The translations under genes and the position numbers were made by a program. The notes under the pieces are model-generated. The model made no database searches, was not told the origin of the DNA, and was given only the letters and a program-made list of their open reading frames with translations. Shown here piece after piece: positions 937 to 51,632 of a stretch of DNA of 64,000 bases (position 1 is its first letter; each line of letters opens with the position of its first letter). The stretch comes from an uncultured Chloroflexia bacterium (GTDB lineage Bacteria; Chloroflexota; Limnocylindria; Limnocylindrales; CSP1-4), in contig CAVZKO010000008.1 in the NCBI GenBank assembly GCA_963775855.1, positions 116,965 through 180,964 of the forward strand, in the 5' to 3' direction.

Positions 937-3388
937 TCACGGGGCGCCGATTGACGGGAGGGCCGCGTAGAGATCCGCGGCGATCGAGATCACAAAACTC
1001 GCGGTGAGGTGGTGGTTATCGCGGTAGACCAGCGTCTTCCCGATGATCGGCGGGCATCGGTTGGTCGGGCACACGACGTCGGACAGGTCGACGACCGCCG
1101 CCCCCGTCAGCCGGGCTGCCTCTGTCTCACGGCGAAGGTGGCGCCAGCCGAACGCTGCCGTGCGGGTGGTCGTGCAGCGCTCGATCGCGTCGCGATGCTT
1201 GGCGAGGCACGCGGGGACGTCAAATTCGGATCGCGGCGTGTCGACGAGGATTGCCACGGTGCCAGGGATGCGCTCGATCAGCCGCGCCAGCGCCGGCTCC
1301 CTGACGCTCGGGCTCATTGTCGCGGTTGGCGACGACCGGGAGCCAGCGGTTCGAGGTGATGATGACGAGATCCGGCTTCAACTTCACCAGGCGGTCGACG
1401 ACGTTCTCCCGCCAGGCCTCGCATTCGGTGTACTCGCGATTGAGGTTGGGCGACCAGATCGGCAGGTCGACGAAGACGCAGCTGAACTTCGTGAGCGGGA
1501 CGAGCCGCCAACCACGCTCCTTGGCCACGACGTTCAGCGCCGGGAACCAATGGGCGGCGTGCGAGTCGCCAACGAGGGCGACGGTGATCGCACCGTTCCG
1601 ATCCCCGTACACGCAGCTGGGCGGTCGGGAGCCGGCCAGCGAGAGTCCGCATCCATCTGCCAGGAGGGGATCGTCGTCGCCCCGCGACGCGCCGAGGGAC
1701 GGCGTGAGATCGCGCGGCACGGGACCGTCGATCCGCGGGCTTGGTCGAGGGATCGGGTCGGGTCGGGCTCGGGCCGACGGCGTCGGGCTCAGTGCCGGCG
1801 TCGCGGTTGCGCTCGGTCGAGGCCCATACGAACCGGGCGACACGATCGCGGTAGGAGAAGGCGTGGGTGAGGGCGTGAGCGAGGGAGCGGCTGGGACCTG
1901 ATCCAACTCGCCGTCGTACGCGGCCGCTTCGATGTCGCGTTGGGCGACAGCGCCCATCGTCGTCGAGCCGACGCCGATCGCGAGCACCGCCGCGCCCGTC
2001 ATTGCGAACCCGCGCACGCGGCCACCGAGCGACAGGCGACCTAGCGGGAGCCGACCGCGGCGGAACGGCTCTTCCACCAGCCGCCACGTGAGCGCAGCCA
2101 GGATCACGGCCAGGAGGACGAGACCGAGCCGAAGGGAAAGGTCGCCCTCGGCGGGACCGGCTTCAGAGGCTGCCAACCCGAGAGCCACGGGCGCGAGGAC
2201 GAGAATCGGCCAGTGCCAGAGATACAGCGAATAGGAGATCCGACCCAGCCAGCGGAGCGGAGGGAGGGAAAGCACGATCCGGCCGGGAGACGCGGCACGC
2301 CCGCCTGAGGCGATGATCCCAGCGGCGCCGAGCGTCGGGAGCAGTGCGGCGAGGCCCGGGTACTCCGTCATCGGCCCGATGACAAGCAGCCCGGCGACCA
2401 GCAGGCCGACTCCCAGCCAGCCGACCATGGCGGCAATCGGGCGTGGCGCCCGGCCGAGCCATGGAGCCGCGACGGCCAGGAGACCTCCGGCGGCCAGCTG
2501 CCAGGCTCGCGTCGGCAACAGGTAGTAGGCCCACGGACCGTTCGACGCCGTCACGGCGACGGAGAGGAGGAATGAGCCGGCCAGGATCACGGTGATGAGG
2601 ACCGTCATCGCGAGACGCGGCCGCCGAGTTCGGGCAGCCAGCAGGAGAAGAACGGGCCAAAGCAGGTAGAACTGCTCCTCCACCCCCAGCGACCAGAAGT
2701 GGAGGACCGGCGACGCAGCGTCGGGCGCGAAGTAGTTCGTGGCGTCGATGGCAAATCGGACGTTCGCGAGCGAGAGGCTCGCGGCGAGGGCGTCATCGGC
2801 GACGCGCGGCAGGTCGAGCGGCGAAAGGACGACTTGGGCCGCGAGCAGCGTGCTCGCCAGCACGACGATGGCCGCCGGGAGGATGCGTCGGGCACGGCGC
2901 GCGTAGAAGGCCCCGAGTCGAATCCGACCTGTCCGCCGACTCTCGTCGACGAGCAGGCCCGTGATCAGGAACCCGGAAAGGACGAAGAAGACGTCGACGC
3001 CAACGAAGCCGGCTTCGGCGCCGGGGAGGCGCGCGTGACATAGCAGGACCAGCAGGATGGCGATGCCACGGAAACCCTCGAGATCCGGCCGGAACCGGGG
3101 TTCGCCCGAGTCAGCGGTGCGGCGCGATTCCGGCCGTGCCGTCAACGCTGGCCTGCCGACCAAGGCCGGTGGCACAGCGGCAACGGCGCTGACGGGCGCG
3201 ACCGTCGCAGCCGATTCGGCGCTCACGAGGCCGCCGGAAGCCCGACGCCCATCGCGTCGTGATCGGGCCATGCCTCGGGCTGACGCACACGCACCGAGCA
3301 GCAGTCCCGCGACAATCGTCGCGGCGACCCGCTTCATCGATGGGTGCATCCCTTGTCCTCCAGGCGGAGTGTGTAGGCAGAGAGACAC
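937..3388 (-). CDS. OatA-like O-acyltransferase (acyltransferase_3 membrane domain plus C-terminal SGNH hydrolase); frameshift near 1220-1317
   Basis: ORF 1220..3388 carries the acyltransferase-3 signature (RPDLEGFRGIAILLVLLCHA) and multiple TM helices, then the start of an SGNH domain (GDSHAAHW). ORF 937..1317 in another frame carries the SGNH C-terminus (TLVYRDNHHLTASF). Confidence 0.75.
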
Positions 3389-3531
3389 GCGACAGCGTCC
3401 GCTTGCGACGTCTCAACCATGTCGCTATGCCGACACCCAGCAGCGCGTGACATCGCGCCCCGGCACAAGTCCTACGTGCCTAGACCCCAGATCGCGCCTC
3501 GCACTCGAAGGTTCACGGTACAGTCGCGGGC

Positions 3532-4800
3532 ATGCTTCGTCGGCTGCCCTACGCCTGGCTCATCGTCGCTGTCACGTTCCTCGTCCTGCTGGTCGCGGCC
3601 GGCGTTCGGGCTGCGCCGGCCGTGCTCATCAAGCCGCTCGAGGCCGAGTTCGGCTGGGACCGCGCCAGCATCTCGCTGGCGATCGCGGTCAGCATCCTCG
3701 CTTTCGGCTCGGCGCGCCGCTGTCCGGCGGCCTGATCGATCGCTTCGGCCCGAAGAGGGTCATGCTCGGCGGACTTGTCCTCATCGTCGGCGGCCTCATT
3801 CCCCTCGCCCTCATGACCGAGCTCTGGCAGTTCCACCTGTTCTGGGGGATCGTCACGGGTGTCGGGACGGGCGCGGTGACCAACGTCCTCGGCGCCACGA
3901 TCGCCCTGCGCTGGTTCCGGACCCACCGCGGGATCGTCCTCGGCGCGTTCGCGGCGGCCTCGTCGGCCGGCCAGCTGATCTTCATCCCGACGCTCCAGGG
4001 GATCATCCTCGACAGCGGCTGGCGGACGGCTGTCGCCGTCCTGGCCGCTGCGGTCGGGCTCGATGCTGCTGCCGGTGCTGCTGCTTCATGCGCGATCGAC
4101 CGGAGGACGTCGGCCAGGCGGCGTTCGGGGCCACCGGCGACGCCGCCGCGGAGGCCGCCGATCAGCAGCGAGGCCGTCCGAGCGACCTCGCTGCGCGATG
4201 CTGCGCGGACGCGCGACTTCTGGCTCCTCGCCGGCAGCTTCTTCATCTGCGGCTACACGTCGAACGGTTTGATCGGCACGCACCTGATCCCGCATGCCGT
4301 CGAGCACGGCTTCACCGAGGTCACCGCGGCGAGCGCCGTCGCGCTGATGGGGACGATGAACATCGTCGGCACGCTCGCGTCGGGCTGGCTCACCGATCGC
4401 TACGACAATCGCCGGCTGCTTGCCGTCTATTACGGCTTCCGGGCGCTGTCGATCGCCGCGCTGCCGCTGATCCTCAACATCCCGCAGCTGTTCCTCTTCG
4501 CGATCGTCTACGGCCTCGACTGGATCGCGACCGTCCCCCGACCGCGAACCTGACCGCCCGAATTTTCGGCCGAGGCTCCCTTGGCACGATCTATGGCTGG
4601 ATCTTCGCGAGCCACATGGCCGGGGCGGCACTGGCGGCGTTCCTCGGCGGCTTCTTCCACGACGTCCTCGGCGACTATCACGCGATCTTCATCTCGGCCG
4701 CGCTGATCGGCTTCGTCGCGGTGCTGCTCGCAAGCCGCATCTCCGTCGGTGGCCTCCAGGGGCCGAAGGACGTCACCACGGCCACCGCACGCGGCGGCCT
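3532..4800 (+). CDS. MFS transporter (oxalate/formate antiporter-like family), split over at least 3 frames
   Basis: N-terminus in ORF 3532..3735 (LPYAWLIVAVTFLVLLVAAGVRAAPAVLIKPLEAEFGW). Body in the 3057..4553 frame (FGPKRVMLGGLVLIVGG..., FWLLAGSFFICGYTSNGLIGTHLIPHAVEHGFT). C-terminus in the 3419..4963 frame (GSLGTIYGWIFASHMAGAALAAFLGG). The 3' end is approximate. Confidence 0.65.
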
Positions 4801-4848
4801 GACCACGGCGCCCCGGCGAGCGCCGATGCCGCCCGCACCGGAGCGGCG

Positions 4849-5553
4849 CTACTCGTTTCGGATCAGGCCGTGTCGGATGGCGTACCGCGTCAGGGCGTTT
4901 GTGCCGCGGAGGCCGAGCTTCTCGACAGGTTGGCGACGTGACGGCGAACGGTGTGGATGCTGATATTCAGCCGCCGGGCGATCTCCGCCGGCGGATGCCC
5001 CGATGCGAGAAGCGTCAGGATCTCGCGCTCGCGGATGCTCATCGGGCCGGATCTGGAGCCAGCGCATCGAGTCGTCGACGATTGCGCCCGGTGACGCTGC
5101 TGTGCAGATAACGCTCTCCGCGCGTGACAGCCCGGATCGCCTCGAGCAACTCCGACGAATGGGCGCCCTTGACCAGATAGCCGGTTGCCCCCGCGGCGAG
5201 CGCCTGCCGAACCGTCTCCGGGTCGCTGTGCATCGTCAGGACCACGATGCGCAATCGTCGATGGCGGCTGCGCAGGGCCCTGCAGCAGCGGGAGACCGTC
5301 GCCATCAGGAAACGTGAGGTCGAGCAGCAGGACGTCAGGGCGAGTCTGGCGCCACCAGATCGAAGGCGTCCTCCTGGGCGGCCGCTTCGCCGACGACCTC
5401 GAAGCCGCTTGCCCCGGCGAGGACCAGCCGGAGGCCCTCGCGAACCAGGTGGTGGTCCTCGACGAGAGCGACACGGATGGGGCGGCGGGCCTTCTGGCGG
5501 TCCGGCAGCGCGGGGATCGCTTCGGCACTTCGACATCCCGGACGTGCCATCAT
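4849..5553 (-). CDS. NarL/LuxR-family response regulator (REC plus HTH_LuxR), frameshifted (about 3 shifts)
   Basis: REC N-terminus in ORF 5335..5553 (IRVALVEDHHLVREGLRLVL). REC pieces in two other frames (RPDVLLLDLTFPDGDGLPLL; IVVLTMHSDPETVRQALAAGATGYLVKG). HTH (SIREREILTLLASGHPPAEIARRLNISIHTVRRHVANL) in the 4890..5528 frame. C-terminus (KLGLRGTNALTRYAIRHGLI) in ORF 4849..5067. Confidence 0.7.
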
Positions 5554-5627
5554 CCGCGCCTGGCCCCCGGCGAATGTTCGGCAGATCCATCAGCCCGCCG
5601 GGTCCGTTGCCGGAATCGGCGTCACGG

Positions 5628-6629
5628 TCAGGTGGCCCGCATCGAGGTCGCCGGTGAGCGGTACTTGCAGCTGGATGACCGTCCCTCACCCGGCCGTGAC
5701 TGGACATCCAGCCGACCCGCGCAGGATGGCCGGCTCGCTCCTGCATGCCGTCAAGCCCCAGACCGCGGCCTCGGGCTGACTGATCGAGGCCGACGCCATT
5801 GTCGCCGACGATGAGCCGGATCTGGCCGTCTATGACGTCGCCATCGATCCAGATGTTCGGGCGCCGTGACTGTGGCGCGCCGCGTTGCCGATCGCCTCCT
5901 GGACGATCCGATAGGCATCGATCTCGCGCTCTGCCCTCGAGCAGGCCGGGCGGCAGCTTCGCCGGGTCGAGCCGGACGTCGACAGGGACGCCGGCCGATC
6001 TGCGAGATTGCTCAAGGCCGGCGCCGAGGCCGATCTCGTGGATTCGCGGTGGGCCGCAGTCGCGGCGGCCACGTCGCGTGCTTCCTCGAGGGCGGATGGC
6101 CGCGAGCAGCTGGGCGCGCCGCATCGTCGCCTGAGCCAGCGGCGACGGGGCCGGTCCAGCCCCGACTCGGCCTCTGCGGCATCGAGGGTCAGGACCACCG
6201 CGGTCAGCGTCTGGCCGACGCCGTCGTGGAGATCGCGGGCAAGACGCCCGCGTTCGTCCTCGTGAGCGGTGTAGCAGCCGGTCGCTCGCCTGCCGATAGA
6301 GCGCGGCGTAGCGCTTGGCGGATGTCGAGAGGAGATCGGCCAAGACGGCCACGATCACGAGATCAGCGAGCATGAGTGGCCACTCTGCGAAGTCCAGTGG
6401 CTCGATCTCGAACGGCTGCCCGAACGTGTGGCCGACGAGCGAGTATCCGATCGCAACGATCGCCGCGATCAGGATCCGGCAGCAAGGCGATTCTCAGGCC
6501 GTATACGAAGGCGCCGACCCCGACCGTCACCCACAGCGCGTGCAGGAGGATTTCGGTGTCGCCCGAACGGAAGAACGTGGCGAATGCGAGCAAGTAGGTC
6601 GCTGCGTCGAGCAGGCGGCGCATCGCCAC
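5628..6629 (-). CDS. Sensor histidine kinase (NarX/DesK-type HisKA_3 plus HATPase), frameshifted
   Basis: Membrane N-terminus in ORF 6363..6629. H-box/N-box region AYRIVQEAIGNAARHS in ORF 5830..6198. G-box IVGDNGVGLDQSARGRGLGLDGMQERAG in the 5039..6373 frame. A C-terminus RLDVQSRPGEGTVIQLQVPL with stop at about 5628-5630 is recovered in a third frame. Confidence 0.65.
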
Positions 6630-6719
6630 CGGCTCGAGGCCGGACTGGCCCCAACACCGAACGGCCCGCGAACCCGCCCATGATCTTCATGACCCCCTCA
6701 ATGGCGGATTTTGAGTATA

Positions 6720-6731
6720 GGCACTAGTGCC
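6720..6731. promoter_or_regulatory. Perfect 12-bp palindrome GGCACTAGTGCC in the divergent intergenic region between the two-component operon and the RND operon; candidate regulator-binding site
   Basis: The palindrome is read directly from the sequence. It lies in the roughly 450-bp non-coding gap 6630..7079, which is lower in GC than the flanks. Confidence 0.3.
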
Positions 6732-7079
6732 CGCCTTCCGACAATGATGCTGGTTGCCGAATTCCCTGGTGTCTGCGGACAGGAATTGGGGCGTCCGCGG
6801 ACGCTCGGACCTGGAAGTCAGCGGCCACGGCGCGGCGTGTAGCCCTGTACTGCGCGGTGTCGATGAGGGCGAGATCGCATGGGGGTGTCGGACGCCGCGC
6901 GCGGATTGGCCTTACCGCGCCGGTGCCCGCCGTGGGGCCATGTCGAACGTGTGAAGTGGCCGGCCGGCTGGCGGCCGTGCGCGTCGGCACGTCGTTCGAG
7001 ACTTGGCGTGCGATCTGCGCGCGCCCGACATCGCCGTTAACGGGCGACGTCGGACGGACTGCGCTGGGAGGCCTGCAGG

Positions 7080-10000
7080 ATGATGCGATCCGTTGTTGGT
7101 TGGGCTCTTCGGTATCGAGGCATCGTTGTGGGCCTGGCCGCCGTCACGCTGCTGTTCGGCTTCCTCCAGCTCCCGAGCATGCCCCGCGACGTCCTCCCGG
7201 AGTTCACGCCGCCGTACGTCGAAGTCCAGACGGAGGCACTCGGCCTGTCGGCCGACGAGGTCGAGCAGCTGATCACGGTGCCCCTCGAGGCCGACCTCCT
7301 CCAGGGCGTGGCGTTCCTCGACGAGATCCACTCCGAGTCGGTGCGCCGGCCTGTCGTCGATCGTGATGATCTTCGAGCCCGGAACCGACATCTTCGCGGC
7401 ACGCCAGGTGGTCGCTGAGCGGCTGACGCAGGCGCACGCGCTGCCGCATGTCTCCAAGGCGCCGGAGATGCTCCAGCCCCTGTCGTCGGCAAGCCGCCTG
7501 ATGATGGTCTCGATGTCCTCGACCGACGTCCCGCTCATCGACATGTCGGTCCACGCCAAGTGGACGGTCCGGCCGCGGCTGATGGGTGTCCCGGGCGTCG
7601 CCAACGTGGCGATCTGGGGCAACCGTGAGCGACAGCTCCAGGTCCGTGTCGACCCCGACCGGATGAAGGCCGCCGGCGTCCAGCTCCAGCACGTGATCGA
7701 GGCGACCGGCAACGCGCTCTGGGTCTCATCGCTGACGTTCCTCGAAGGCTCGACGCCGGGGACGGGTGGGTTCATCGACACGCCCAACCAGCGCCTCGGT
7801 GTCCAGCACGTGTTCCCGATCAGCACCGCCGACGAACTTGCCCGAGTCCGGATCCAGCCCGAGGACACGGGCGGTCGGGTCGTCCGCTTGGGCGACGTTG
7901 CCGAGGTCGTGGAGGACCACCAGCTGCTGATCGGCGACGCCGTCGTCAACGACGGGCCCGGTCTGATGCTGGTCATCGAGAAGTTCCCCAACGCCGATAC
8001 CGTCGCGGTGACCCGGGCGGTCGAGCAGGCTCTTGAAGCGCTGCGCCCGGGGCTGGGCGGGATCGCGATCGACACCAAAGTCTTCCGGCCCGCGACGTTC
8101 ATCGAGCAGGCCATCGGCAACGTCTCGCTGGCCCTGCTTGCAGGCTTTGTCCTGGCCGCGGTCGTGTTCCTGGTCTTCTTCCGCGACTGGCGAGCCGGGC
8201 TGATCGGCCTGGTGTCCCTGCCCTTGTCGCTGGTCGCCGCCCTACTGGTCCTTAACAGCCTCGGTGCGACGCTCAATGCCATCGTCGTCGCCGGCCTCGT
8301 CCTTCGATCGGCGTGATCGTCGACGATGCGATCGTCGGCATCGACGAGGTCCTCCGCCGCGGTCGCCATCCGGAGGGCACCGACGCCGGCACGCCGGCGG
8401 CGTCGATCATCCTCGAGGCCGCCCTTGGGCGGCGGCGCCCGATCGTATTCGCGACGCTCATCGCCTTGTCCGCGATGGCGCCGGCGCTCTTCGTTTCGGG
8501 CGAGGCGGGAGCGTTCCTGCCGCAGCTGATCATCGCGTATGTCCTCGCGATGCTGGCGTCCATGGTCGTGGCGCTGACGGTGACGCCGGCCCTCGCCCTG
8601 ATCCTCCTGGCGGGTACGGCCCGGAACGGGCACCAGACCCCCCTGTCGCAGGCGCATCCACAACGCGTACGCGTCGCTGCTGTCGCGGTTGCTCCGGCGC
8701 ACCCGGCCGATGTTCCTGGCCGCCGCCGCCATCACGGTCGTGGTCGTGGTCGTGGCCGGCGCGGTCACGGCGCCGCATCTCGGCGATTCCTTCGTTCCGC
8801 CGTTCAAGGAAGGCGACATTCTGATCCGCTGGGATGGCCCGCCGGGCACCTCGCGCGAGGAGATGAACCGGATCGCCGCCCTGGCGGGAGCCGAGCTCCG
8901 GTCTATTCCGGGTGTCCGTGGCGTGGGTGGCCACACCGGCCGGGCGATCACCTCCGACCAGGTCGTCGGCACGAACGCCGGCGAGATCTGGGTCAACATC
9001 GACCCGTCCGCCGACCACGACGCCACGCTCGCCGCCATCCGTGACACGGTCGCCGGCTACCCCGGCCTCAGCCACGCGGTCAGCACGTACACGAGCGACC
9101 GGACGACCGATGTCCTCGGGGGCGACCCCAATGACGTTGCCATCCGCGTCTACGGCCAGGAGGACGCGATCCTTCGCCAGAAGGCCGACGAGGTCGCCCA
9201 GGCCCTGACCGGGATCGACGGCCTCGTCGACCTCACGGTCGTCGCCCCGATCGAAGAGCCGCGACTCAAGATTGCCGTCGACCTCGAGAGGGCCGGCGCA
9301 CGCGGCGTCGCCCCGGGCGACGTCCGGCGGGCTGCGGCGACACAGGTGGCCGGCATCGAGGTCGGCTTCCTGTTCGAGGAGCAGAAGATCTTCGAAGTCG
9401 TGGTCTGGGGCTCGCCGGAGGCCCGCCACAGCATCGACAGTGTCCGCAACGTGATCGTCCCGACCATGCGACGGCGCGGTCCGACTCGGAGACGTCGCCG
9501 ACGTCAGCATCAGCAGCGGCCCTTCAGTGATCCGGCGCGAGGGCGTGTTCCGGTTCATCGATGTCGTGGCCGATGTCCGCGGGCGCGACTTCGGCTCAGT
9601 CATGACGGACGTCAACAGCCGTCTCGCGGCAGTCGCATTCCCCTTGGAGTACCGCGCCGAGGTCCTCGGCGCACTCGCTCCAGGCCCAGGCGGACCTGTC
9701 CCGCCTGATCGCGATCGTGGTCGCCGCGGCGCTCGCGATCCTCCTCCTCCTCCAGGCAGCCTTCGGCAGTTGGCGGCGGGCATTGTTCGTCTACGTAGCT
9801 CTGCCGGTGGCGCTGGTCGGGGCGGCTCTCGGCGCGATCCTGACCGGCGGCTTCTTCTCGATCGGCGTCGTCGCCGGATTGTTCGCGGTTCTCACGATCG
9901 CGGTCCGGATCTGCATCGTGAGCGTTGACCGCTACCAGGCGCTCGAGAGCGCGCCGGACGCGGAGCTCGGGCCGGATCTCATCCTCGACGGAGCCCGGGA

Positions 10001-10247
10001 GCGGCTTTCGCCGATCCTGGCGACCGCGATCGCTACGGCCCTCGCGATGGCGCCGTTCATCGTCCTCGGCGGGCTGCCGGGGATCGAGATCCTCCGACCG
10101 ATGGCGATCGTCGTTCTCGGTGGCCTCGCTACTTCTACCCTGTTCGCCCTGTTCCTGGTCCCCGCCGTGTACCTCAGCTCAGGGCCAAGCCCGGAGCCGG
10201 ACGCGGCAACCCAGCTGGTCGAGCAGCCCGGCATGAGTCCGGTCTGA
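7080..10247 (+). CDS. Efflux RND transporter permease (CusA/CzcA-like, VDDAIV-IEN type), about 1050 aa split over at least 6 frames
   Basis: Consecutive ORFs 7080..7418, 7363..8316, 8313..9044, 8689..9708, 9527..9928 and 9717..10247 tile a complete RND permease colinear with the intact paralogue downstream. Representative segments are LPEFTPPYVEVQTEALGLSADEVEQ, MIVDDAIVGIDEV and the C-terminal 12-TM region. Confidence 0.7.
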
Positions 10248-10729
10248 TGAACGCTTCCAGACCAATCAGCACGAGAGAGAGGTTCACGATGGGGCGGAGC
10301 AATCGGAGGGCGCTGATCGGCCTCGGCCTGGCCGCGTTCCTGCTGGCGGCCTGTGCGCAGGGGGAGGTGGCAGGCATCGTCTCCGAGGATCCGCCCGTTA
10401 AGGTCGAAAAGAACGAGGTCACAGGACTCAGCCGGTTGACCCTGTCGGCCAAAGCCGCCGAGCGCCTCGGGATCGCCACCGGAGCCGTTTCTGCGGCCGG
10501 AGCGGGCACGGCCATTCCGTACGCGGCTCTCGTCTACGACAAGGCGGGCAAGACCTGGGTCTACACGAATCCCGAGGGCCGTGACTTCGTCCGCGAGGCA
10601 ATCGAGGTCGAGCGGATCGAGGGCGATCTGGCGTTCCTGTCGTCCGGCCCGCCCGTTGGCACGGCGGTCGTCACCGTCGGCACGGCGGAGCTGTGGGGCG
10701 TCGACACCGGTGTTGGTGGTGGCCATTGA
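10247..10729 (+). CDS. Small lipoprotein resembling only the beta-barrel / membrane-proximal part of an RND periplasmic adaptor (MFP); no alpha-hairpin
   Basis: ORF of 160 aa. Its start overlaps the RND1 stop (TGATG). Signal peptide with lipobox LLAAC (an alternative start MGRSNRR lies at about 10289). The body (VTGLSRLTLSAKAAERLGIATGAVSAAGAGTAIPYAALVYDKAGKTWVYTNPEGRDFVREAIEVERIEGDLAFLSSGPPVGTAVVTVG) follows the HlyD-family C-terminal pattern. Confidence 0.5.
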   Translation: MNASRPISTRERFTMGRSNRRALIGLGLAAFLLAACAQGEVAGIVSEDPPVKVEKNEVTGLSRLTLSAKAAERLGIATGAVSAAGAGTAIPYAALVYDKAGKTWVYTNPEGRDFVREAIEVERIEGDLAFLSSGPPVGTAVVTVGTAELWGVDTGVGGGH

Positions 10730-10770
10730 GGCGGTCAGCTGAACGCTGCTGACCCGGGAGGATCCCCACC

Positions 10771-13700
10771 ATGATGCGCCTCATCGTTCGTTCGAGCCTG
10801 CGTTACCGCTTCCTCGTCCTCGCCGCCGCGGCCGGGATGATGGTCATCGGTCTCGGCCGGATCCAGAATGTGCCGGTCGACGTGTTCCCGGAGTTCGCCC
10901 CGCCACGGGTCGAGATCCAGACGATCGCTCTCGGGATGTCGACCGCGGAAGTCGAGTCGCTCGTGACCGTGCCCATCGAGCAGGCGCTTGCCGGCATCGA
11001 GGGGCTCAACATCCTGCGCTCGAAGTCCGTCCCGCAGCTCTCGCAGATCGAGCTGATCTTCACGCGAGAAACAAATCTGCTGCGGGCTCGCCAGCTTGTT
11101 GCCGAACGCCTCTCCAACGTGGCCGCGACGCTACCCACCTGGGCCAGTCCGCCGTTCATGATCCAGCCGCTCTCGGCGACGAGCCGGGTCCTGAAGGTCG
11201 GCCTGTCGTCGGACACGATGTCCATGATGGATCTGTCGATGACGTCGTACTGGACGATCCGCAGCCGGCTCCTCAGCGTCGAGGGCGTCGCTAACGTCAC
11301 GATCTACGGCGAGCGGCTCAAGCAGCTCCAGGTGCAGGTCCTCCCCGAGCAGATGGCGGCGAAGAGCGTCACGCTCGACGATGTAATGGTGGCGGCAGCG
11401 TCCGCCCTCGACGCCGGGCTCCTCCGCTTCAGTGACGGCAGCCTGATCGGCACGGGCGGCTTTGTGGACACGGCCACCCAGAGGATCGTCGTCCAGCACC
11501 TGCCGACGGTCATCACTGCCGAGAGTCTCGCCAACGTCAAGGTCGAGAACGCACTCGGCAGGCAAATCCCCCTGACCGATGTCGCGAAGCTCGTCACCGA
11601 CTTCCAGCCGCTGGTCGGCGACGCCGTCATCAACGACGGCCCAGGGATCATGTTGATCGTCGAGAAGTTCCCGTGGGCCAACACCCTCGACGTCACCCGC
11701 GGCGTCGAGCAGGCGTTCGCTGAGCTGCGGCCGGGTCTCCAGGGCATCGAGATCGACACGACGATCTTCCGGCCGGCGACCTTCATCTCCGTGGCCCTCG
11801 ACAATCTCGCCCGGGCGCTCCTTATCGGCTCCATCCTCGTCTTCGCGATCCTGGTCCTGTTCTTGTTCGACTGGCGGACGGCATTGATCAGCCTCGTCGC
11901 GATCCCGCTGTCGCTGATGGCCGCCATGCTCGTCCTCGACCTCCGCGGGACGACGATCAACACGATGGTGATTGCCGGGCTGATCATCTCGGTCGGGGTT
12001 GTCGTTGACGACGCGATCATCGATATCGAGAACATCGTCCGCCGCCTGCGCCAGCACCGGCTGGCCGGGAGCAATCGCTCGACGGCGTCGATCGTCCTTG
12101 ATTCCTCTCTCGAGGTCCGAAGCGCGATCATCTACGCGACGCTGATCGATGTCGTCGCGATCATCCCGGTCTTCTTCGTCGGGGGTCTATCGGGGGCGTT
12201 CTTCCAGCCGCTCGTGATCTCGTACGGCCTGGCAGTGCTGGCCTCCCTGGCCGTCGCCCTGACGGTGACCCCGGCGATGGCCCTGATCCTGCTCCGCAAC
12301 GCCGCGGTCGAACGACGTGGCTCGCCGGTCGCCCGGCTCCTCCAGCGTGGCTACCAGGGGCTCCTGAGCCGGATCGTCCGCCGCTCCAGGCCGGCCTTCG
12401 TCGCTGTCGGGGCGATCAGCGTCGCCGGCGCCGTCGTCTTCTCCCAGCTTGGCCAGGGCCTGCTGCCGGACTTCAAGGAGCGGGACTTCCTGATGCACTG
12501 GGTGACCGCGCCCGGGACCTCGGCATGCAGAGGAGGTCCGGATCGCGACCGCTGCATGCATCGAGTTGCGCTCGATCCCCGGCGTCCGCAACTGCGGTAC
12601 CCACATCGGCCAGGCCTTTCAGGCCGACGAGCCGTACGGCATCGACTTCGGGGAGAACTGGATCAGCGTCGACCCGGCCGTCGACTACGCCAGCACGCAC
12701 GACGCCATTCTAGAAGTCGTTAATGGCTATCCCGGCCTGCGGCGCGACGTCCAGACGTATCTCAAGGAGCGGATCCGGGAGGTCCTGACGGGCTCCAGCG
12801 ACGCGATCGCCATCAAGATCTATGGGCCGGACCTCGAAGTTCTTCGGGAGAAGTCGATCGAGCTCGAGGAGGCCATGTCCGGGATCCCGGGCATCATCGA
12901 CCTCCATCGCGAGCTCCAGGTCGAGGTTCCCCAGGTCCAGGTCGAGGTCGACCTCGCCAAGGCCCTCGCTTACGGGATCAAGCCGGGCGACGTTCGACGC
13001 GCGGTTTCGGTCTTGCTGGCGGGCGAGGAGGTCGGCGACATTTTCGTCGCCGGCAAGGCCTACGACGTCATGGTCTGGACGACGCCTGCTGTTCGCGAGA
13101 GCGTGACCGACATCGAAGACCTCCCGATTGACACGCCAGTCTCGGGACCGGTTCGCCTGGGCGAACTCGCCGATGTCCGCGTGGTCTCCAGTCCCAACAG
13201 CGTCAGCCATGAGGCGCTCACCCGTCGTATGGGCGTCGGCGCCAACGTGAGCGGGCGCGACCTGGGTGCGGTCATCCGGGACGTGGAAGCGGCCGTCGCC
13301 GGTATTCAGTTCGACGAGGGCTATCATCCCGAGTTCCTCGGCGAGTTCGCCGAGCGACAGGCCGCCCAGAGCCGCCTGCTGCTGTTCGCCTTGGCCGCGG
13401 TGATCGGGATCTTCCTGCTGCTCCAGGCCTCGTTCGGGAGCACCCGGCTGGCGGTCCTGTCGTTCCTGTGCCTCCCGTCGGCACTCGTCGGTGGGGTCCT
13501 GGCGGCGTGGATCGGTGGTGGGGTGATCTCGCTCGGATCGCTCGTCGGCTTCTTCACCGTCTTGGGAATCGCCGCCCGCAACGGGATCATGATGATCAAC
13601 CACTTCCAGCACCTCGAGCGCTACGAGGGCGAGGCGTTTGGTCCGGCGCTCGTCATCCGCGGCGCACGGGAGCGGCTCTCGCCGATCCTGATGACAGCCC

Positions 13701-13906
13701 TGGCTACGGGTCTGGCCCTTGTGCCGCTGGCGATCGCCGGCGACCTGCCGGGGCATGAGATCGAGCACCCCATGGCGATCGTCATCCTGGGCGGCCTCGT
13801 CACTTCGACGCTGCTCAACTTGTTCGTGGTCCCGTCCCTCTACCTGCGCTTCGCGCGGCGTGGGGTCGGCGGGAGCGGAACGGAGGCCGCGGTCCAGGCA
13901 ACCTGA
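10771..13906 (+). CDS. Efflux RND transporter permease (CusA/CzcA-like), paralogue of the upstream copy; single frameshift near 12500-12570
   Basis: ORF 10771..12723 (650 aa) carries the N-terminal half including VVVDDAIIDIENIV. ORF 12566..13906 carries the second periplasmic loop and the C-terminal TM bundle. The two are colinear with the upstream RND copy. Confidence 0.85.
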
Positions 13907-13946
13907 TCTACCGTCACCGGGGCTTATAGAGGGGGTTTCGTTCAAT

Positions 13947-14903
13947 ATGCGTCCCATCGTTGGTCTCCTGGCAGTCGGTTTGTCGACCGTGCTAGCCGCC
14001 GCGAGTTGCGCCGCGGTCGCCAATCCCTCGCCCAGCACCGCCGCGTCCGTGCCCAGCGGCAGCGCGCCTTCCGCCACGCCTTCGCCGACGCCCACGCCGG
14101 AACCGACGGTGGCGCCCGAACCCACCGAATCGCTGATCGAGACGTTCCCCCAAGATTCCTTCAGTGACCCGACGACGGTGGACAACATCTACTACCCGCT
14201 GATCCCAGGGACGCGTCTGACCTTCGAGGGCCAGGTCAATGGCGACGAGGGGGAGCGGCTCGCCCACAGCGTCGTCATGACCGTCACCGACATGACAAAG
14301 GTCATAGATGGCGTCGAGAACCGGATCGTCCACGAGCAGGACTTCACGGCCGGTGAGCTTGTCGAGGCGGAGCTCGCTTTCTGGGCCCAGGACGACGAAG
14401 GCACCGTGTGGCACATGGGCGAGTACCCCGAGGAGTACGAGGAAGGGGAGATCGTCGCAACGCCGGCCTGGATCGCCGGGGTCAAGGACGACAAGGCCGG
14501 GATCTACATGATGGCGAAGCCGCAGCTCGGCACTCTCAGCTATTCCCAGGGTTGGGGCCCCGATGTCGGCTGGGCGGACCGGGCGAGAATCTTCGAGACG
14601 GGTTCGGCGACGTGCGTTCCCGCCGGCTGCTACGACGACGTCCTTGTGACCGCCGAGTACAACCCTGACGACCCCGACGCCTATCAGCTCAAGTACTACG
14701 CACCCGGGGTCGGCCCTGTCCGGGTCGGCTGGGCCGGCGCCCTCGAGAAGGACCAAGAGGTCCTCGAGCTCGTGACAATCGCGATGCTCACAGAAGAGGA
14801 ATCAACGAAGGTCCGACAGACCGTCCTCGACATGGAGAAGCGGGCATACGAGCTCGACAAGGACGTCTACGGCACGACTGAGCCTGCCAAACCCTCCGGC
14901 TGA
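13947..14903 (+). CDS. Secreted lipoprotein of unknown function (about 319 aa), immediately downstream of RND2
   Basis: ATG at 13947 inside the 13719..14903 frame. Signal peptide MRPIVGLLAVGLSTVLAAASC with a lipobox, then a Pro/Thr/Ser-rich linker and an acidic globular domain. No recognisable family. Confidence 0.55.
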   Translation: MRPIVGLLAVGLSTVLAAASCAAVANPSPSTAASVPSGSAPSATPSPTPTPEPTVAPEPTESLIETFPQDSFSDPTTVDNIYYPLIPGTRLTFEGQVNGDEGERLAHSVVMTVTDMTKVIDGVENRIVHEQDFTAGELVEAELAFWAQDDEGTVWHMGEYPEEYEEGEIVATPAWIAGVKDDKAGIYMMAKPQLGTLSYSQGWGPDVGWADRARIFETGSATCVPAGCYDDVLVTAEYNPDDPDAYQLKYYAPGVGPVRVGWAGALEKDQEVLELVTIAMLTEEESTKVRQTVLDMEKRAYELDKDVYGTTEPAKPSG

Positions 14904-15010
14904 GGAACTCGGGCGTCTCTGGCTCGCCGGGCTGCCGTGCAAACGGCTGATCGCTGGGCAACTGCTATCGTGCGGCGGTGGACACCTCCACGATCGCCCA
15001 CCACCCGACG

Positions 15011-16847: not shown

Positions 16848-17470
16848 TGGTCGGCGGCCTCAGCAGCGACTTCGGCGCGACCCGGGCCCTGCTCGGCGGC
16901 GCGGCCATGAGCCGCGCCTGGGATCACGACCTCGCGGGCCTCTTCGTCGAGGAGCTTTTCGCCAAGCATCACGGCGAGATCTACGCCTACCTCATCAGGA
17001 TGATCCGCGACCCAGAGCTCGCCGCCGACCTGACCCAGGACGCGTTCGTCAAGGCGTACCGCGCGTACGACAGCCTCGAGAAGCCCGAGAACGCGCGGGC
17101 CTGGCTCTACCAGATCGCCCATCGCGTGGCGCTCGACCACATCCGTCGCCAGAAGATCGTCCGCTTCCTGCCATGGACCGGCGAGTCACGCGGTGCGGTC
17201 CCGTCGGCTGAGCATCTCGTGATGGAGGCCCACCTCTCGGGCGATCTCCAGCGTGCCCTCGAGCGCATTCCCGAACGTCAGCGGGCCGCACTCCTGCTGG
17301 CCGAGCTGCATGATCTGACCGGCCTCGAGCTTGCGGCAGCGCTCGGGGTCAGCCACGTGGCGGCGCGGGCCCTGCTCACCCGGGCCCGGGAGAGCCTCCG
17401 CCAGGCGCTCGCGTCCGAACGTGCTCGCCGAGGCCGAGCCGCGCGTCACCGCCACATCCGGAGACAAGCG
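16848..17470 (+). CDS. ECF (sigma-70 family) RNA polymerase sigma factor; 3' end obscured by a frameshift
   Basis: Inside the 15833..17617 frame: region 2 (LFAKHHGEIYAYLIRMIRDPELAADLTQDAFVKAYRAY) and region 4 (RIPERQRAALLLAELHDLTGLELAAALGVSHVAARALLTRARESL). Confidence 0.7.
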
Positions 17471-19206
17471 ATGAGCCTCCTCGGCGGCCGCGGCGGGCGC
17501 TCCGACGATTGGTCAACGCAGCACGACCGTGCTCGCGCGCGACTCTCAGAACGGCTCGACGGCCCCCTCGATCCCGAGGAGTCGCAATGGCTCGACGAGC
17601 ATCTCGCAGAGCTGTGACGACGTGCGCGGTCACGGCCGCCGAGTACGCGGCCCAGCGCCTCGAGCTCCGCGCCCTCCGCGATCGGATGCCCGCCCCGCCC
17701 CGCGATCTGTGGGCGAGGACCGCAACGTCGATCGAGCGCGAGGCTCGCCATCGTGCACTCCAACCTCGCGGCGGCCGCGCCGATCCACTCTTGCCCCGTA
17801 TGCCCTGCTCGCCGGTGCGGTGGCCGTGGCTGTCGTCGTCGGGACGCTGACCTCCTCCCAGGCTTCCCGGCGATCGCGACGGCCACGCCCGCCGCATCGA
17901 ACGAGATCGCCGTCGACCAATGACACCGCCCCTCGCCGACCCGACTCCGCTCGCTGTCGCCCGCCAGGAAGTCGAGTACGTCAGCCTCGACCCTGACGGC
18001 CTGGTCCAAGATCAACACGACCCAGATCTCGGAGGTCTGTCCAACCGGGGCCGGCACCTGCGCGACGACGCGAGCCAAGCGAGGTCGTGAGCATCGGCCC
18101 GCTGTCGAGCCCGGAGACCGTGTTCGGATCGGGCGACGCGCCGCTCGTCGTTCTTGGCGACAGCGCCAACGGGTCGAGCGTCTTTGCGGTCGCGCGGCCG
18201 GACAAGGTCGGACCCGATTCGACTCCCTCGCTCGAGCCCACGCCGTCGGTCAAGCCGACAGCCATCTCCATCGGGCTCGGACACGAGCGGCCCCACGCCG
18301 TCGGCGAGCTCGCCCGTCGAGTCGACGCCTCCGGCCTCGAACGAGCCGCCGGCCGGGACGGTCGAGATCGCGACTGGCCTCGACGTGGTCGACACGACCG
18401 CCGCCTACGCCCCGGATGGCTCGGCGTTCGCCTTCACGGCTCGGCCGTCGGACGGCTCGCACGGACCCGACATCTATCTCTGGACGGTCGGCGATCGCCG
18501 CGGCCCGTCCGATCACGACCGACCACCGATCGGTCTTCGGCTCGTGGGTCGGCGACATGATCGTCGGCAGCACGGTTGTGACCTCGGATGACGGGCTGAC
18601 GAACTCTCCGGCGGCCTTCGTGCTCGCGACCGACGGCCGGGAGGCCGTCTCGCTTCCGCAGGCCGGCCTCGCGTGGCGGCCGGTGGTCGACCCCACCGGA
18701 GGCGCCGCGGTCTACTGGGCCGGCACGCTCGAGCCGACCGACGATGATCTCGGCTGGCGGACCGATCGCGGGCGCCTCGTCATCGGTCGATGGAGTGCCG
18801 GTCCGGACGCTTCCGACGAGCCCGGGCGCAACGCCCCTGACGCGGCGACCAGGCCGTCGAGCGCGCCGAGACGACGATCGCCGAGGGTCCGCTCGCCGAT
18901 TGGGACGCGCGCTGGGACGAGACCGGCACACGGCTCGCCGTCTGGGTGGCCGACGCGGACGACCCGCGAGTCGGAACCCTGAGCCTCTACGTCGTCGACC
19001 CGTTCGACGGTCGGATCGACCTCGCAAACCCGCAGCTCGAGGACGAGCGGGCGCTCGCCGGCTTCTCGATCGCAGACGGCCGCCTCGCGTGGGCGGCCCC
19101 GGCCGGCAGCTCGGACAAGGCGAAGCACGTGAAGGTCCTCGCCTGGACGAACGAGGGATTCGGCCAGGTCGAGAGCGCCGAGGGGGACTTCCTGCTCGTT
19201 CGCTGA
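17471..19206 (+). CDS. Anti-sigma factor with a single TM helix and a large extracytoplasmic domain, split over about 5 frames
   Basis: Starts MSLLGGRG with HLAEL, then a C-rich motif after a shift (zinc-finger anti-sigma style). TM helix APYALLAGAVAVAVVVGTL. Extracytoplasmic pieces in ORFs 18087..18560, 18154..18591, 18416..18982 and 18946..19206 (TolB/beta-propeller-like DGSAFAFTARPSDGSHGPDIYLW). Confidence 0.5.
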
Positions 19207-33768: not shown

Positions 33769-35643
33769 CGTTGACCCGGTTCCAGCGACTGGCGATGCTC
33801 AGCGTCGCGATGACGCTCGCGCCTCGTGACGATCGGTGTCATCGTCCGCGCCACCGGCTCCGGCATGGGCTGTCCGGACTGGCCGCTCTGCCACGGCCAG
33901 CTGATCCCGCCGCTCGACGACTATCAGGCCTGGATCGAGTGGGTCCATCGCACGGTCGCGGCCGCGATCGGGTTCGTGGTGCTTGCCCTGGCCTTCGTCG
34001 CGTTCCGCGACCATCGCGACCGGCCCAGCCTCCTGTGGCCGTCGGTCGGGGCCGTGCTTCTCGTCGGGTTCCAGGCGTGGCTCGGGCGCGAGACGGTCCG
34101 GCTCAACAACTCCGGCGAATCGGTGACGGCGCACCTGGCGGCCGCGATGGCCCTGGTCGGGCTCCTCGTGTACATCCTCGTCCGGTCGTTCTATCCGGCG
34201 CGTATCGGCGGCCGGGGTGGCAGCCAGCGGTTCACGCTGCTCGCCGCGTTCGGTGCCCTGGCGGTCTTCGCCCTGCTCCTGTTCGGGTCGCAGGTGACGG
34301 CCACGTCGCAGTGGTTCGTCTTCCCCGACTGGCCGCTGATGAACGGCTCGCTGCTGCCGCCGCTCAGCGAGGGCACGTCGGCCCACGTCCTCCACCGCTG
34401 GGTGGCGATCGTCGTCGGCCTGATCGTGGCGGCCGTGACCCTTGCCGCGTGGCGGACACAGCGCTCGAACAGGGCGATCCTCCGGCTTACGCTGGTCGCG
34501 GCGATCCTCTTCCCGATCCAGGCGGTCATCGGCGGCCTCCAGATCCTGACCGACCTGGCGGGCTGGACCCAGACGCTCCACGTCGCCCTGGGCGCCCTGA
34601 TCTGGGCGGCGATGGCGGCTCTCGTCACGACGAGCTACTACGCGGCGAGGACCGCGCCCGCCCCGGCCGGCGACCGGACGGGCGCGACCGGCGGCCGGAT
34701 CGGCGGCGACGAGAGCAACGCTGAGCGGCACACCAGGACCGACACGGTTCGCGCCTACATCGCCCTGACCAAGCCCCGGATCATCGAGCTGCTGCTCGTC
34801 ACGACCGTCCCCGCGATGGTCCTCGCCACGCGCGAGGTGCCGGGGATCCAGGTCGGCCACTGGGCCTGGCTCACGCTCTGGACGCTCGTCGGCGGGACGC
34901 TCGCAGCGGGCAGCGCGAACGCGATCAACTGCTACCTCGATCGCGACATCGACGAATTGATGGTCCGCACCCGACGCCGGCCGCTGCCGGCCCACGAGGT
35001 CGACCCCGAGCGGGCGGTCGTGTTCGGCCTCGTCCTCGGGGTGATCTCGTTCGTCGTCCTGGCGTGGTTCGTCAACCTCCTCTCGGCCTTCCTCGCCCTG
35101 CTGGCGATCGCCTTCTACGTCGTCGTCTACACGATCGTCATGAAGCGGACGACGCCCCAGAACATCGTGATCGGCGGGGCGGCGGGGGCCCTGCCGCCGG
35201 TCATCGGCTGGGCGGCGGTCACCGGCAACGTCGGCATCCCGGCGCTCCTCCTCTTCGCCCTCGTCTTCTACTGGACGCCGCCCCACTTCTGGGCGCTTTC
35301 GCTGCGGATCCGGAAGGACTACGCGGCGGCCGGCGTGCCGATGCTGCCCGTCGTCCGGGGCATCCCCGAGACGACCCGCCAGATCGGCCTCTACGCGATC
35401 CTCATGGTCGCGATCTCGCTCGTGCTGTGGGCCGTCGCCCGGATGGGCTGGATCTACCTCGTCGCGGCGGTCGTGCTTGGCGCGATCTTCCTTCGCCAGG
35501 CCTACCGCCTGTGGCGCGAGGGCGCCTCCGAGGAGGCGTCGACCGCCGGCGCGATCCGCCTCTACAAGTACTCGATCTCGTACCTGACGCTGCTGTTCGC
35601 GGCAATCGCGGTCGACGCGATCGTGGCCGTCCCGCTCGGCTGA
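33769..35643 (+). CDS. ctaAB: Fused heme A synthase (CtaA/COX15-like) and protoheme IX farnesyltransferase (CtaB/COX10, heme O synthase); one frameshift near 33820
   Basis: A single 605-aa ORF, 33826..35643. The N-terminal half has RATGSGMGCPDWPLCHGQLIPP and 8 TM helices with conserved His residues. The linker is YYAARTAPAPAGDRTGATGG. The C-terminal half has the UbiA-fold motifs YIALTKPRIIELLLVT...NCYLDRDID...MKRTTPQNIVIGGAAGALPPVIGWAAVTG...YWTPPHFWAL. The extreme N-terminus RFQRLAMLSVAMTLA is in the adjacent frame (ORF 33771..). Confidence 0.8.
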
Positions 35644-37453: not shown

Positions 37454-37635
37454 CCGAGGTCCGCGGCGTGGCCCGCGTGCTTGGCGTGTCCCGTGGCGCG
37501 GAACCACGGGCACCATCAGGCGGAACGCCGGGGGCATTGGAATCGGGCCGCCACACAATCGGGCGCATGGTTGAGCTTGCTCAGCGACCGGTGCAGGAGG
37601 GTACGCTGGCGGCAACGGCCGCTCCGGCCGACTCG

Positions 37636-41560: not shown

Positions 41561-41675
41561 CGGGGAGGCCGATGTCTTCGAGGGCGACGTCGCGGCGGTT
41601 CGCCTGCCCCGCGCCGGGGACTCACCGACGTCCCGGTCCGATGCCCGGACGAGAGCGGCGACCCGCGGCTGACCC

Positions 41676-47483: not shown

Positions 47484-47655
47484 CGTCGTCCCTCGTTTCT
47501 GCCCCGGTAGGAAGGTTGTAGGCCCCAACGGATGGGTTCGATCTGGATCGAAGGTACTAGTCAGGGCGCGGCATTGTGACCAAGGACGCTCGCCACGTCC
47601 CGGCATACCTTCATGGCCGGCCCTCTCCGGTGTGGGCCAGGAGAGCCAACCGCAC

Positions 47656-48936: not shown

Positions 48937-48947
48937 CGCGCCGGCGC

Positions 48948-51588: not shown

Positions 51589-51632
51589 TCATGTAGATAT
51601 TACTTTTCTTCCAACTCGGCCACGAGGGCTGC

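Follow-up and report, generated by a model that had tools for sequence, protein, structure and literature searches.

How might an efflux pump of the resistance-nodulation-division (RND) type be put together in a cell without an outer membrane? The adaptors of such pumps are usually explained as bridges from an inner-membrane pump to an outer-membrane channel, and Chloroflexota are generally held to have no classical outer membrane. The question is raised by a locus in a 64,000-nucleotide stretch (hereafter the window) of contig CAVZKO010000008.1 from an uncultured Chloroflexia bacterium, in which genes for two RND permeases, RND1 and RND2, enclose a gene for a small lipoprotein, lipoS, and are followed by a gene for a second lipoprotein, lipoL, all divergent from a histidine kinase and response regulator pair. 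A sequence-only reading of this DNA had described the same gene content, order, and strands, which are borne out by mapping from an intact orthologous locus (L001) and by Pfam searches. It had also placed the DNA in a monoderm actinobacterium; the nearest genomes are, however, metagenome-assembled genomes (MAGs) of uncultured Chloroflexia, Candidatus Limnocylindria, and Chloroflexi CSP1-4, and the cassette is found in Actinomycetota as well. Its further point, that neither an outer-membrane factor (OMF) nor a full membrane fusion protein (MFP) is encoded, holds at the locus: neither an OMF family nor a full MFP appears in the annotation of the orthologous 20-kb region of L001, and tblastn searches of the window with AcrA and with a longer lipoS relative, P0298, recovered no other MFP-like sequence and no further RND gene. 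Based on the evidence set out below, we propose that the locus is a functional four-gene operon, shared by single-membrane soil bacteria of several phyla, whose RND efflux machine is fitted to cells lacking an outer membrane, and that the interruptions of its genes in the window are consensus errors of the assembly, a reading that we consider, taken as a whole, to be rather probable.

Central to this proposal is lipoS, which is intact in the window. An AlphaFold (AF2) model built from 52 sequences of its family has an overall pLDDT of 82.6, rising above 90 at residues 50-140, and Foldseek matched it in the PDB to periplasmic adaptors throughout the top 24. First among them is CusB of the CusBA complex (3ne5_C; 28% identity over 72 columns with a root-mean-square deviation of 2.4 Å), and others include ZneB, TMexC, AcrA, TriAB, MexA, BesA, and a construct of the SilB N-terminus and membrane-proximal domain (MPD). 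The sequence-only reading had suggested structure prediction as a check of adaptor kinship, and the model indeed resembles the MPD of CusB, ZneB, AcrA, and MexA. At the sequence level, the lipoS family profile matches the two halves of the TriA-TriB fusion protein, each in its C-terminal region (4.4e-5), and aligns collinearly with the SilB construct, though not significantly (E = 0.66). The adaptor MPD is defined as an N-terminal strand together with C-terminal elements (PMC4446572). As lipoS has such a strand and such elements, and its 146-residue chain is too short in the model to accommodate beta-barrel, lipoyl, and alpha-hairpin domains, we interpret it, on the strength of the model and of its sequence relatives, as a periplasmic-adaptor relic with the MPD alone. 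Tempering this identification are the weak Foldseek E-values (8e-3 and worse, over about 60-70 aligned residues), the absence of a match to any MFP model of Pfam (HlyD_D23, HlyD_3, Biotin_lipoyl_2) among the 52 family members scanned, and an hhalign comparison of the family with Escherichia coli AcrA in which the signal peptide alone was aligned. Nor did lipoS fall into any family in the Pfam and NCBIfam scans.

The connection to canonical adaptors comes from longer relatives within what is a large family, with 1211 matches in a word-indexed search and 2397 in a profile search among representatives of 50%-identity clusters. In 31 of the 150 best of these 2397 matches, extra sequence placed at the loop around residue 70 of lipoS splits the alignment in two. 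One such protein, P0298 (331 aa), shares 55% identity with lipoS before the insertion and 56% after it. The insertion itself comprises a region matching Pfam HlyD_D23 / HlyD_3 / Biotin_lipoyl_2 (2.3e-11, exceeding the gathering score) and, after it, a segment of beta-barrel type; judging by this sequence layout P0298 is a hairpin-less adaptor, and its gene is situated between RND genes. At the same locus (L055), positions 3738-6160 code for an ABC-2 type transporter (an ATPase and an ABC2_membrane_2 permease) that separates the adaptor gene from the RND gene upstream of it. Further lipoS-like forms of 240-295 aa, five of them among the loci that we fetched, carry an insert without a Pfam match, which we read as a beta-barrel segment only. 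These forms make up a graded series from MPD with barrel and lipoyl domains, through MPD with barrel, to the MPD by itself, with lipoS as the end point of a stepwise loss of the hairpin, lipoyl, and beta-barrel domains. The sequence-only reading was right to see in lipoS a hairpin-less derivative of an adaptor, but the beta-barrel that it supposed to be retained is missing along with the lipoyl domain.

Other features of the family are in line with this interpretation. The lipobox Cys is invariant, and a member from Catellatospora has a transmembrane (TM) helix in place of the lipid anchor, as do some adaptors; an N-terminal anchor and a gene adjoining that of the transporter are thus both present. 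Three of the four domains by which an adaptor is recognized are missing from lipoS, yet it is clearly derived from the adaptor family. The NCBI name of one 153-aa member from C. paridis is already "efflux RND transporter periplasmic adaptor subunit", most others being "hypothetical protein". The close family also shares a nearly invariant C-terminal tail, ELWG(V/A)(D/E)TGVGGGH (10700-10729 in the window), which is modelled with low confidence and is replaced in distant members by endings of the type ...GVGK or ...EIGH; we know of no counterpart of the GVGGGH tail in canonical adaptors.

We then examined the genomic context of the family by fetching 53 loci with a degenerate pattern derived from it and by seeking the flanking RND genes with tblastn. 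The order RND1-lipoS-RND2 is present in essentially all of those loci that are long enough to show the flanks, an arrangement far beyond chance, and lipoL follows downstream in about half of the 53. The conservation of gene order in related genomes, which the sequence-only reading had named as a way of checking the unit, therefore extends well past close relatives: within Chloroflexota the carriers belong to Limnocylindria, Anaerolineae, Ardenticatenaceae, Caldilineaceae, and Thermoflexales, within Actinomycetota to Thermoleophilia/Gaiellaceae, Acidimicrobiia, and Catellatospora, and others to Dormibacterota. Every intact upstream permease is nearer to RND1 (n=35) and every intact downstream permease nearer to RND2 (n=33; the reference is counted in each), and identity to the reference ranges from 58 to 89% for RND2, much the better conserved of the two, compared with 44-62% for RND1. 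Because the upstream copies are always of the RND1 type and the downstream copies always of the RND2 type, with differing degrees of conservation, the duplication must be old and both copies have been kept. A few carrier bins are labelled as Proteobacteria or Methylomirabilota, so that a restriction of the cassette to monoderms is not clean.

These exceptions deserve notice in their own right: the minimal-adaptor cassette is found in MAGs labelled Steroidobacteraceae, Alpha- and Betaproteobacteria, and Methylomirabilota (L006, L020, L032, L033, L034, L026), in one case on a contig of 358 kb, and they may reflect mis-binning, mislabelling, or transfer into diderms. In two Gaiellaceae MAGs (L025 and L035) the cassette is extended to RND1-lipoS-RND2-lipoS'-RND2', so that permeases number three and minimal adaptors two, which suggests that lipoS-RND is a repeating unit. 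Clustering of the neighborhoods identified a MacB-type ABC transporter, an M48 peptidase, and an ECF sigma factor as recurrent neighbors. The first of these, a fusion of ABC_tran, MacB_PCD, and FtsX domains, adjoins the cassette in 13 loci (e.g. L022, 14834-16867 on the minus strand), some of which also have a PG_binding_1 protein and an unannotated protein of 370 aa, and it may represent a second efflux system on a shared island.

Gene boundaries in the window were mapped from L001 (ENA contig_5478, 1.6 Mb), which is 93% identical in DNA sequence over 4843-14930 (Table 1).

Table 1. Features of the locus in window coordinates, with the basis of each assignment.
Feature	Coordinates	Strand	Basis
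Response regulator, NarL/LuxR type (receiver + GerE helix-turn-helix)	4849-5590	-	L001 mapping, Pfam
Histidine kinase, HisKA_3 + HATPase_c	5590-6681	-	L001 mapping, Pfam on indel-corrected protein
Divergent intergenic region	6682-7079	.	Alignment with five related loci
RND1, RND permease (orthologue 1054 aa)	7080-10247	+	L001 mapping, Pfam ACR_tran
lipoS, small lipoprotein, 146 aa, lipobox LAAC	10289-10729	+	100% identical to called protein P0002
RND2, RND permease, 1044 aa	10771-13906	+	L001 mapping, Pfam ACR_tran
lipoL, second lipoprotein, 318 aa, lipobox AASC	13947-14903	+	100% identical to called protein P0121

The length of 160 aa given for lipoS in the sequence-only reading is that of the longest open reading frame (ORF), which starts at 10247, but the conserved protein begins at M15. 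Each of the three gaps within the plus-strand block spans about 40 bp. Purine runs resembling Shine-Dalgarno sequences stand 5' of each start that was inspected (RND1, lipoS, RND2, and lipoL), the one before RND1 being a GGGAGG ribosome-binding site. A consensus scan of the operon found no sigma-70-like promoter, internal ones included, and a terminator scan returned only two weak terminator-like hairpins, both within coding sequence and at chance level. Adjoining the response regulator gene, about 1.37 kb (3474-4843) is missing from the otherwise collinear L001, owing either to insertion or to deletion; this stretch holds an MFS_1 transporter gene that is itself frameshifted (ORFs 3057-4553 and 3419-4963).

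The permeases are full-length members of the ACR_tran family (PF00873). The fragments of RND1 fall collinearly on profile positions 9-83, 91-393, 397-499, 531-782, and 869-1018, and those of RND2 on 2-573 and 647-1020, all above the 28-bit cut-off, and neither permease has a match to the Pfam MMPL model. Among solved structures both are nearest to ZneA (322 and 292 bits) and CusA (306 and 221 bits), the values of 322 and 306 being those of RND2, with proteins of AcrB/MexB type scoring about 175-225 bits. The model for heavy-metal efflux (HME) RND proteins, TIGR00914, is their best-scoring NCBIfam family, but its cut-off of 701.45 bits is not reached by indel-corrected RND1 (424.8) or by RND2 (562.1). 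Both permeases have a TM4 motif of the form xVGX3DDAX3IEN (SVGVVVDDAIIDIEN in RND2, IGVIVDDAIVGIDE in RND1), of which the Asp-Asp pair is invariant in all 33 RND2 orthologues. D413, D414, and R936 are invariant in the RND2 orthologues and nearly so in those of RND1. RND2 D413 aligns with CusA D405, and Arg936 in TM10 aligns with CusA E939, at what we take to be the position of AcrB K940.

The second lipoprotein, lipoL, belongs to a family with more than 2400 matches that is without a Pfam or NCBIfam model. Its AF2 model (pLDDT 85.4) consists of a disordered Pro/Thr-rich tether, a curved sheet of 12 strands, and a long C-terminal helix, together amounting to an open beta-barrel with a C-terminal helix. 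The best Foldseek match is the YmcC-like BF2203 (3fzx; E = 1e-6, TM-score 0.36/0.50), with BDI_3050 and DUF1849 also among the matches and, more weakly, LolA-type proteins (E around 1e-2), RseB, VioE, nitrobindin, ependymin, and the VtrC barrels. Mature lipoL has 52 Asp/Glu but only 18 Lys/Arg and is therefore very acidic, its pI being 4.1 (4.05-4.9 across the family). Gene fusions tie this large uncharacterized family to efflux. Two proteins, P0260 (417 aa) and P0380, contain the lipoL domain inserted within lipoS, at the very loop that the barrel and lipoyl domains use in longer adaptors, and the domain in P0260 is 49% identical to lipoL of the window (E = 1e-77); in P0266 the lipoL domain is fused to the lipoS C-terminus. 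The sequence-only reading was right to include lipoL in the unit.

The divergent pair is a NarL-type two-component system, as had been stated from the sequence: HisKA_3 with HATPase_c in the kinase, and receiver with GerE domains in the regulator, are found both in the indel-corrected proteins of the window and in the intact orthologues. The corrected regulator matches Response_reg at 1.3e-26 and GerE at 1.4e-13, and its intact orthologue has 245 aa. The start of the kinase is uncertain, lying at 6681 by orthology and at 6629 in the ORF used by the sequence-only reading, and hydropathy of the orthologue indicates that its N-terminal 120 or so residues are hydrophobic, forming 3-4 membrane segments without an extracytoplasmic domain. 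Control of the unit by this system finds support in the linkage seen in close relatives, but the system does not stay with the cassette beyond them: it occurs beside it in only seven such relatives, in two orientations, and in its place a kinase of HAMP-HisKA type is encoded near the cassette at ten loci of more remote kinship. Alignment of the divergent intergenic region with five related loci revealed no convincing operator. Some 40 bp upstream of the start of the kinase gene, at 6720-6731, there is a perfect 12-bp palindrome, GGCACTAGTGCC, which occurs once in the window against 0 expected; its surrounding block, TTTTGAGTATAGGCACTAGT, is conserved in L003 and L004 and altered in L001, so that the palindrome is a possible, only partly conserved, operator or promoter element.

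Taking these results together, we propose the following model. Given the conservation of the TM4 Asp-Asp pair and the TM10 Arg in both permeases, RND1 and RND2 would be proton-driven, and in light of their co-occurrence they probably assemble as a heterotrimer comparable to MdtB and MdtC, which form a mixed RND trimer. The small lipoprotein lipoS would bind the permease porter domain as the MPD of CusB or AcrA does; because there is no outer membrane to reach, it would build no duct and might instead gate or activate transport or tune the access of substrates. A role in substrate vetting is reported for the AcrA MPD (PMC8934357). On its long linker, lipoL could sit above lipoS, at the former site of the barrel and close to where cargo enters or leaves the pump, and handle it there. 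In the lineage of the window, the adjacent membrane-embedded HisKA_3 kinase and NarL-type regulator would switch the operon on; a point against the model is that this two-component system is not kept with the cassette outside Limnocylindria-like relatives.

We turn next to the cargo. At the positions of the ZneA proximal site, which by counting along the alignment we take to be E136, D602, E610, D654, and D658, RND2 has R139, E620, E628, E666, and E670, four of the five being acidic. The letters of that site are E, D, E, D, and D, with the motifs DPFSPSHIE and DGVLD (PMC7060636 supplement). At the copper site of CusA, formed by M573, M623, M672, and E625 (PMC8092243), RND2 has H576, F626, E670, and E628. 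Six residues of this region, H576, D619, E620, E628, E666, and E670, do not vary among the 33 RND2 orthologues; in RND1 they are kept only in part. A conserved pocket of carboxylates and His at the HME metal site points, as far as sequence can, to a cationic substrate, without proving a metal, and we suggest that divalent metal ions would be the simplest case. Several observations weigh against metals. The HME signature of TM4, DFGX3DGAX3VEN in HME1-3 or AVGX3DAAX3IEN in HME4 (PMC7060636 supplement file 9), is missing in both permeases; the CusA Met triad is absent, being replaced by His, Phe, and Glu; ZneA E136 is replaced by Arg; and the neighborhood clustering yielded no recurring metal regulator, P-type ATPase, or CDF transporter. 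The description of the permeases as CusA/CzcA-like in the sequence-only reading accordingly stands as to nearest family but has to be qualified, as they lie below the TIGR00914 cut-off and have neither the HME motif in TM4 nor the Met triad.

The same architecture could instead serve a hydrophobic cargo, be it a lipid, a glycolipid, a lipoprotein, or an amphiphilic antimicrobial, with the RND pair extracting it from the outer leaflet, the LolA-like lipoL accepting it or handing it on, and the kinase sensing perturbation of the membrane. We regard this as possible though somewhat unlikely. An Asp-Asp pair in TM4 is the pattern of amphiphile pumps, the kinase has no extracytoplasmic sensor, the recurring neighbors are the MacB-type transporter, M48 peptidase, and ECF sigma factor rather than metal genes, and the fold class of lipoL (LolA, YmcC, nitrobindin) usually binds hydrophobic ligands, as do its other best matches, RseB, VioE, ependymin, and VtrC; all of these suit an amphiphile or an envelope lipid equally well. 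The lipoL fold matches are, however, of low TM-score (0.33-0.5), the protein is extremely acidic, the permeases are overall nearest to ZneA, CusA, and TIGR00914 rather than to HAE-1 models, and the His-plus-carboxylate cluster of RND2 is invariant at the very site where HME pumps bind metal. On balance these sequence features lead us to prefer a cationic cargo, only slightly, over an amphiphile or envelope-lipid one.

A second alternative, which we would entertain tentatively rather than expect, retains the operon but dissolves the heterotrimer: RND1 and RND2 would be independent homotrimeric pumps, with lipoS serving RND2, and RND1 working alone or with lipoL. The order lipoS-RND2 is that of acrAB and cusBA, where the adaptor precedes the pump; the proton-relay residues are kept in both paralogues; and the repeats of the lipoS-RND unit in the two Gaiellaceae loci fit separate pumps equally, the case for a heterotrimer consisting of co-occurrence only. 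That co-occurrence is nonetheless extensive, since both paralogues are found together, with distinct conservation, in essentially every locus over phylum-level distances, as is the pattern of obligate partners like MdtB and MdtC, and most loci have one adaptor gene per two pumps.

A more far-reaching possibility is that the cassette represents an unrecognized, Terrabacteria-specific class of RND system, in which the adaptor was whittled down, one domain at a time, to its MPD after the outer membrane was lost and the duct was replaced by a LolA-like lipoprotein that accepts lipidic or envelope cargo. We consider this improbable as matters stand; were it true, the cassette would serve envelope building or trafficking instead of detoxification, and would be a molecular fossil of diderm ancestry in Chloroflexota and Actinomycetota.

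That the locus is intact in the organism is not obvious from the window itself. The sequence-only reading had the genes at the right coordinates but overlooked that the large ones are not open frames there. Relative to L001, 1-bp indels at 7345, 8304, 8649, 9467, and 9673 break RND1 into six frame pieces; RND2 is in two pieces, owing to a single 1-bp insertion at 12522; and the response regulator and kinase genes have indels at 8 and 23 positions. In lipoS there are none, and the frame of lipoL is open, a 1-bp insertion and a 1-bp deletion near 14790 canceling out. The kinase and regulator region is almost without a continuous frame, as is evident in both the ORF list and a plot of third-position GC. 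Taken at face value, these frameshifts against an intact orthologue (five and one in RND1 and RND2, respectively, and roughly 31 in the two-component pair, where their density is well above that of the remainder of the locus) could be real mutations in RND1, RND2, the kinase, and the regulator, making the locus of this genome a decaying, non-functional remnant. We find this very unlikely. Nearly all differences from L001 in the aligned frames are single-base indels; there are no large deletions, and once the indels are taken out none of the six genes contains an internal stop and each differs from L001 mainly at third codon positions. The substitutions in RND1 are distributed over the three codon positions as 18/11/76 (76 of 105 at the third), with 68 synonymous and 30 non-synonymous codons, and those in RND2 as 28/14/119; the pieces of RND1 are 95-98% identical to RND1 of L001 in tblastn. 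Decay of RND1 into a pseudogene, which the sequence-only reading had named as something that would lessen the significance of the tandem paralogues, is therefore not what the differences look like.

Furthermore, housekeeping genes and others unrelated to efflux are interrupted at a similar rate throughout the window. A hidden Markov model of composition divides the 64 kb into about 105 frame segments, and single Pfam domains are divided across it between overlapping ORFs of different frames. Other split genes include lipB (break at 15331), the MFS gene, and an RNase J-like beta-CASP gene (35711-37453); an MttB-like methyltransferase gene (37537-39199) is also affected, and a GcvT gene reads through into a Rieske oxygenase (39605-41782). 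The dense indels of the kinase and regulator may likewise have counterparts. In patches of about 1.5-2.3 kb the third-position GC signal is lost completely; in that of the two-component system (4775-7120) this results from one indel per 60-90 bp or so, and the remaining four (17419-18842, 47419-49005, 51241-52900, and 60936-62222) may be either further dense-error stretches or real non-coding DNA. Finally, the nearest relatives are bins of nanopore long-read MFD metagenomes, several of which have like splits, such as that of lipB in L004. From the absence of stops after indel removal, the third-position bias of change, the window-wide frameshifts, and the splits in sister bins, we take the locus to be intact in the organism; the frame interruptions are almost certainly consensus errors of a long-read metagenome assembly and not pseudogenes. 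In practical terms, the broken genes are artefacts of data quality, and with so low a consensus accuracy any call of a pseudogene in the window is suspect.

The weakest of the alternatives, that lipoS is no kin of adaptors at all but an unrelated small beta-protein, such as a CusF-like metallochaperone or a substrate-binding lipoprotein, lodged by chance between the pumps, could appeal to the lack of a Pfam match, the weak Foldseek E-values, and a conserved C-terminal tail that is no known adaptor feature, but we consider it exceedingly unlikely in view of the 24 adaptors at the head of its structural matches (CusF being none of them), the relatives more than 50% identical to it that are split by a bona fide HlyD_D23 region at the site expected from adaptor topology, and the member already named an adaptor subunit. 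The CusF-like reading in particular was rejected on the adaptor-only structural matches, on these HlyD_D23-split homologues, and on the want of any conserved Met/His/Cys metal motif beyond the lipobox Cys and the terminal His, which is Lys in many members.

Comparison with characterized systems helps to define what is peculiar to the cassette. It most resembles the HME systems CusCBA and ZneCBA of Gram-negative bacteria, with which it shares full-length ACR_tran permeases whose nearest solved relatives are ZneA and CusA, a lipoS whose top structural match is CusB within CusBA, and acidic residues of RND2 that align with CusA E625 and with all but one of the five residues of the ZneA proximal site. 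It departs from them in having no OMF, in an adaptor cut down to the MPD, in permeases that score below the TIGR00914 threshold and have Asp-Asp in TM4 in place of Asp-Gly or Asp-Ala and His/Phe/Glu in place of the Met triad, and in possessing two permease paralogues and an additional acidic lipoprotein. The system may thus be described as a CusBA- or AcrAB-like pump stripped of the parts that serve the outer membrane. Like MdtABC and MuxABC, it has two paralogous permease genes co-inherited with a single adaptor gene; the order is, however, RND-adaptor-RND, the adaptor is minimal, and a heteromer is here suggested by co-inheritance alone. In mycobacteria, MmpS, a small membrane-anchored accessory protein of about 140 aa, is encoded beside the RND-superfamily transporter MmpL, a functional analogy of a small anchored partner next to an RND gene in an envelope that is not classically Gram-negative; the permeases of the cassette are of the ACR_tran type with no MMPL match, and lipoS is homologous to the adaptor MPD with no MmpS-like structural match.

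Among adaptors, BesA of Borrelia burgdorferi (BesABC) is a natural form without the alpha-hairpin (PMC4446572); its chains are among the structural matches of lipoS, and P0298-type relatives share its hairpin-less three-domain layout, but BesA has lipoyl and beta-barrel domains and an outer-membrane channel as partner, and lipoS has neither. YknX is the sole Gram-positive adaptor noted to have an MPD (PMC4446572); YknXYZ resembles the cassette in that an adaptor is present in a monoderm without an OMF to bridge to, and MacB-type ABC transporters recur beside the cassette, but YknX has a prominent hairpin and an ABC transporter partner, in contrast to the lone MPD and RND partners of lipoS. Gram-positive adaptors were found in a 2015 review to retain hairpins unexpectedly (PMC4446572). 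The reviews and literature that we searched cover the hairpin-less BesA and the MPD-less EmrA, and in them we found no description of an MPD-only adaptor of monoderms. The main phylogenetic survey of HME and HAE-1 proteins left out Actinobacteria, Chloroflexi, and Firmicutes (PMC10872679), and the lipoS family carries HME-like RND pumps into phyla so excluded. What emerges is a large natural family in which the adaptor has been reduced to the domain that touches the pump and is nevertheless encoded between two RND permeases. That the MPD alone is retained, and always between two such permeases, is evidence for a role of its own and suggests that this domain has a job beyond bridging to the outer membrane, such as activation of the pump or vetting of substrates. 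The cassette accordingly offers a minimal system for the study of that role, with relevance both to the mechanism of efflux pumps and to the monoderm/diderm question.

Two observations elsewhere in the window may be added. A 605-aa ORF at 33826-35643 joins a COX15-CtaA domain (heme A synthase) to a UbiA domain (heme O synthase, CtaB-like), and is either a natural CtaA-CtaB fusion or a read-through caused by an indel. The cluster at 36166-41782 codes for an MttB-superfamily methyltransferase, a GcvT-type aminomethyltransferase, and the alpha subunit of a Rieske / ring-hydroxylating oxygenase, and looks like a pathway for the demethylation of methylated amines or glycine betaine.

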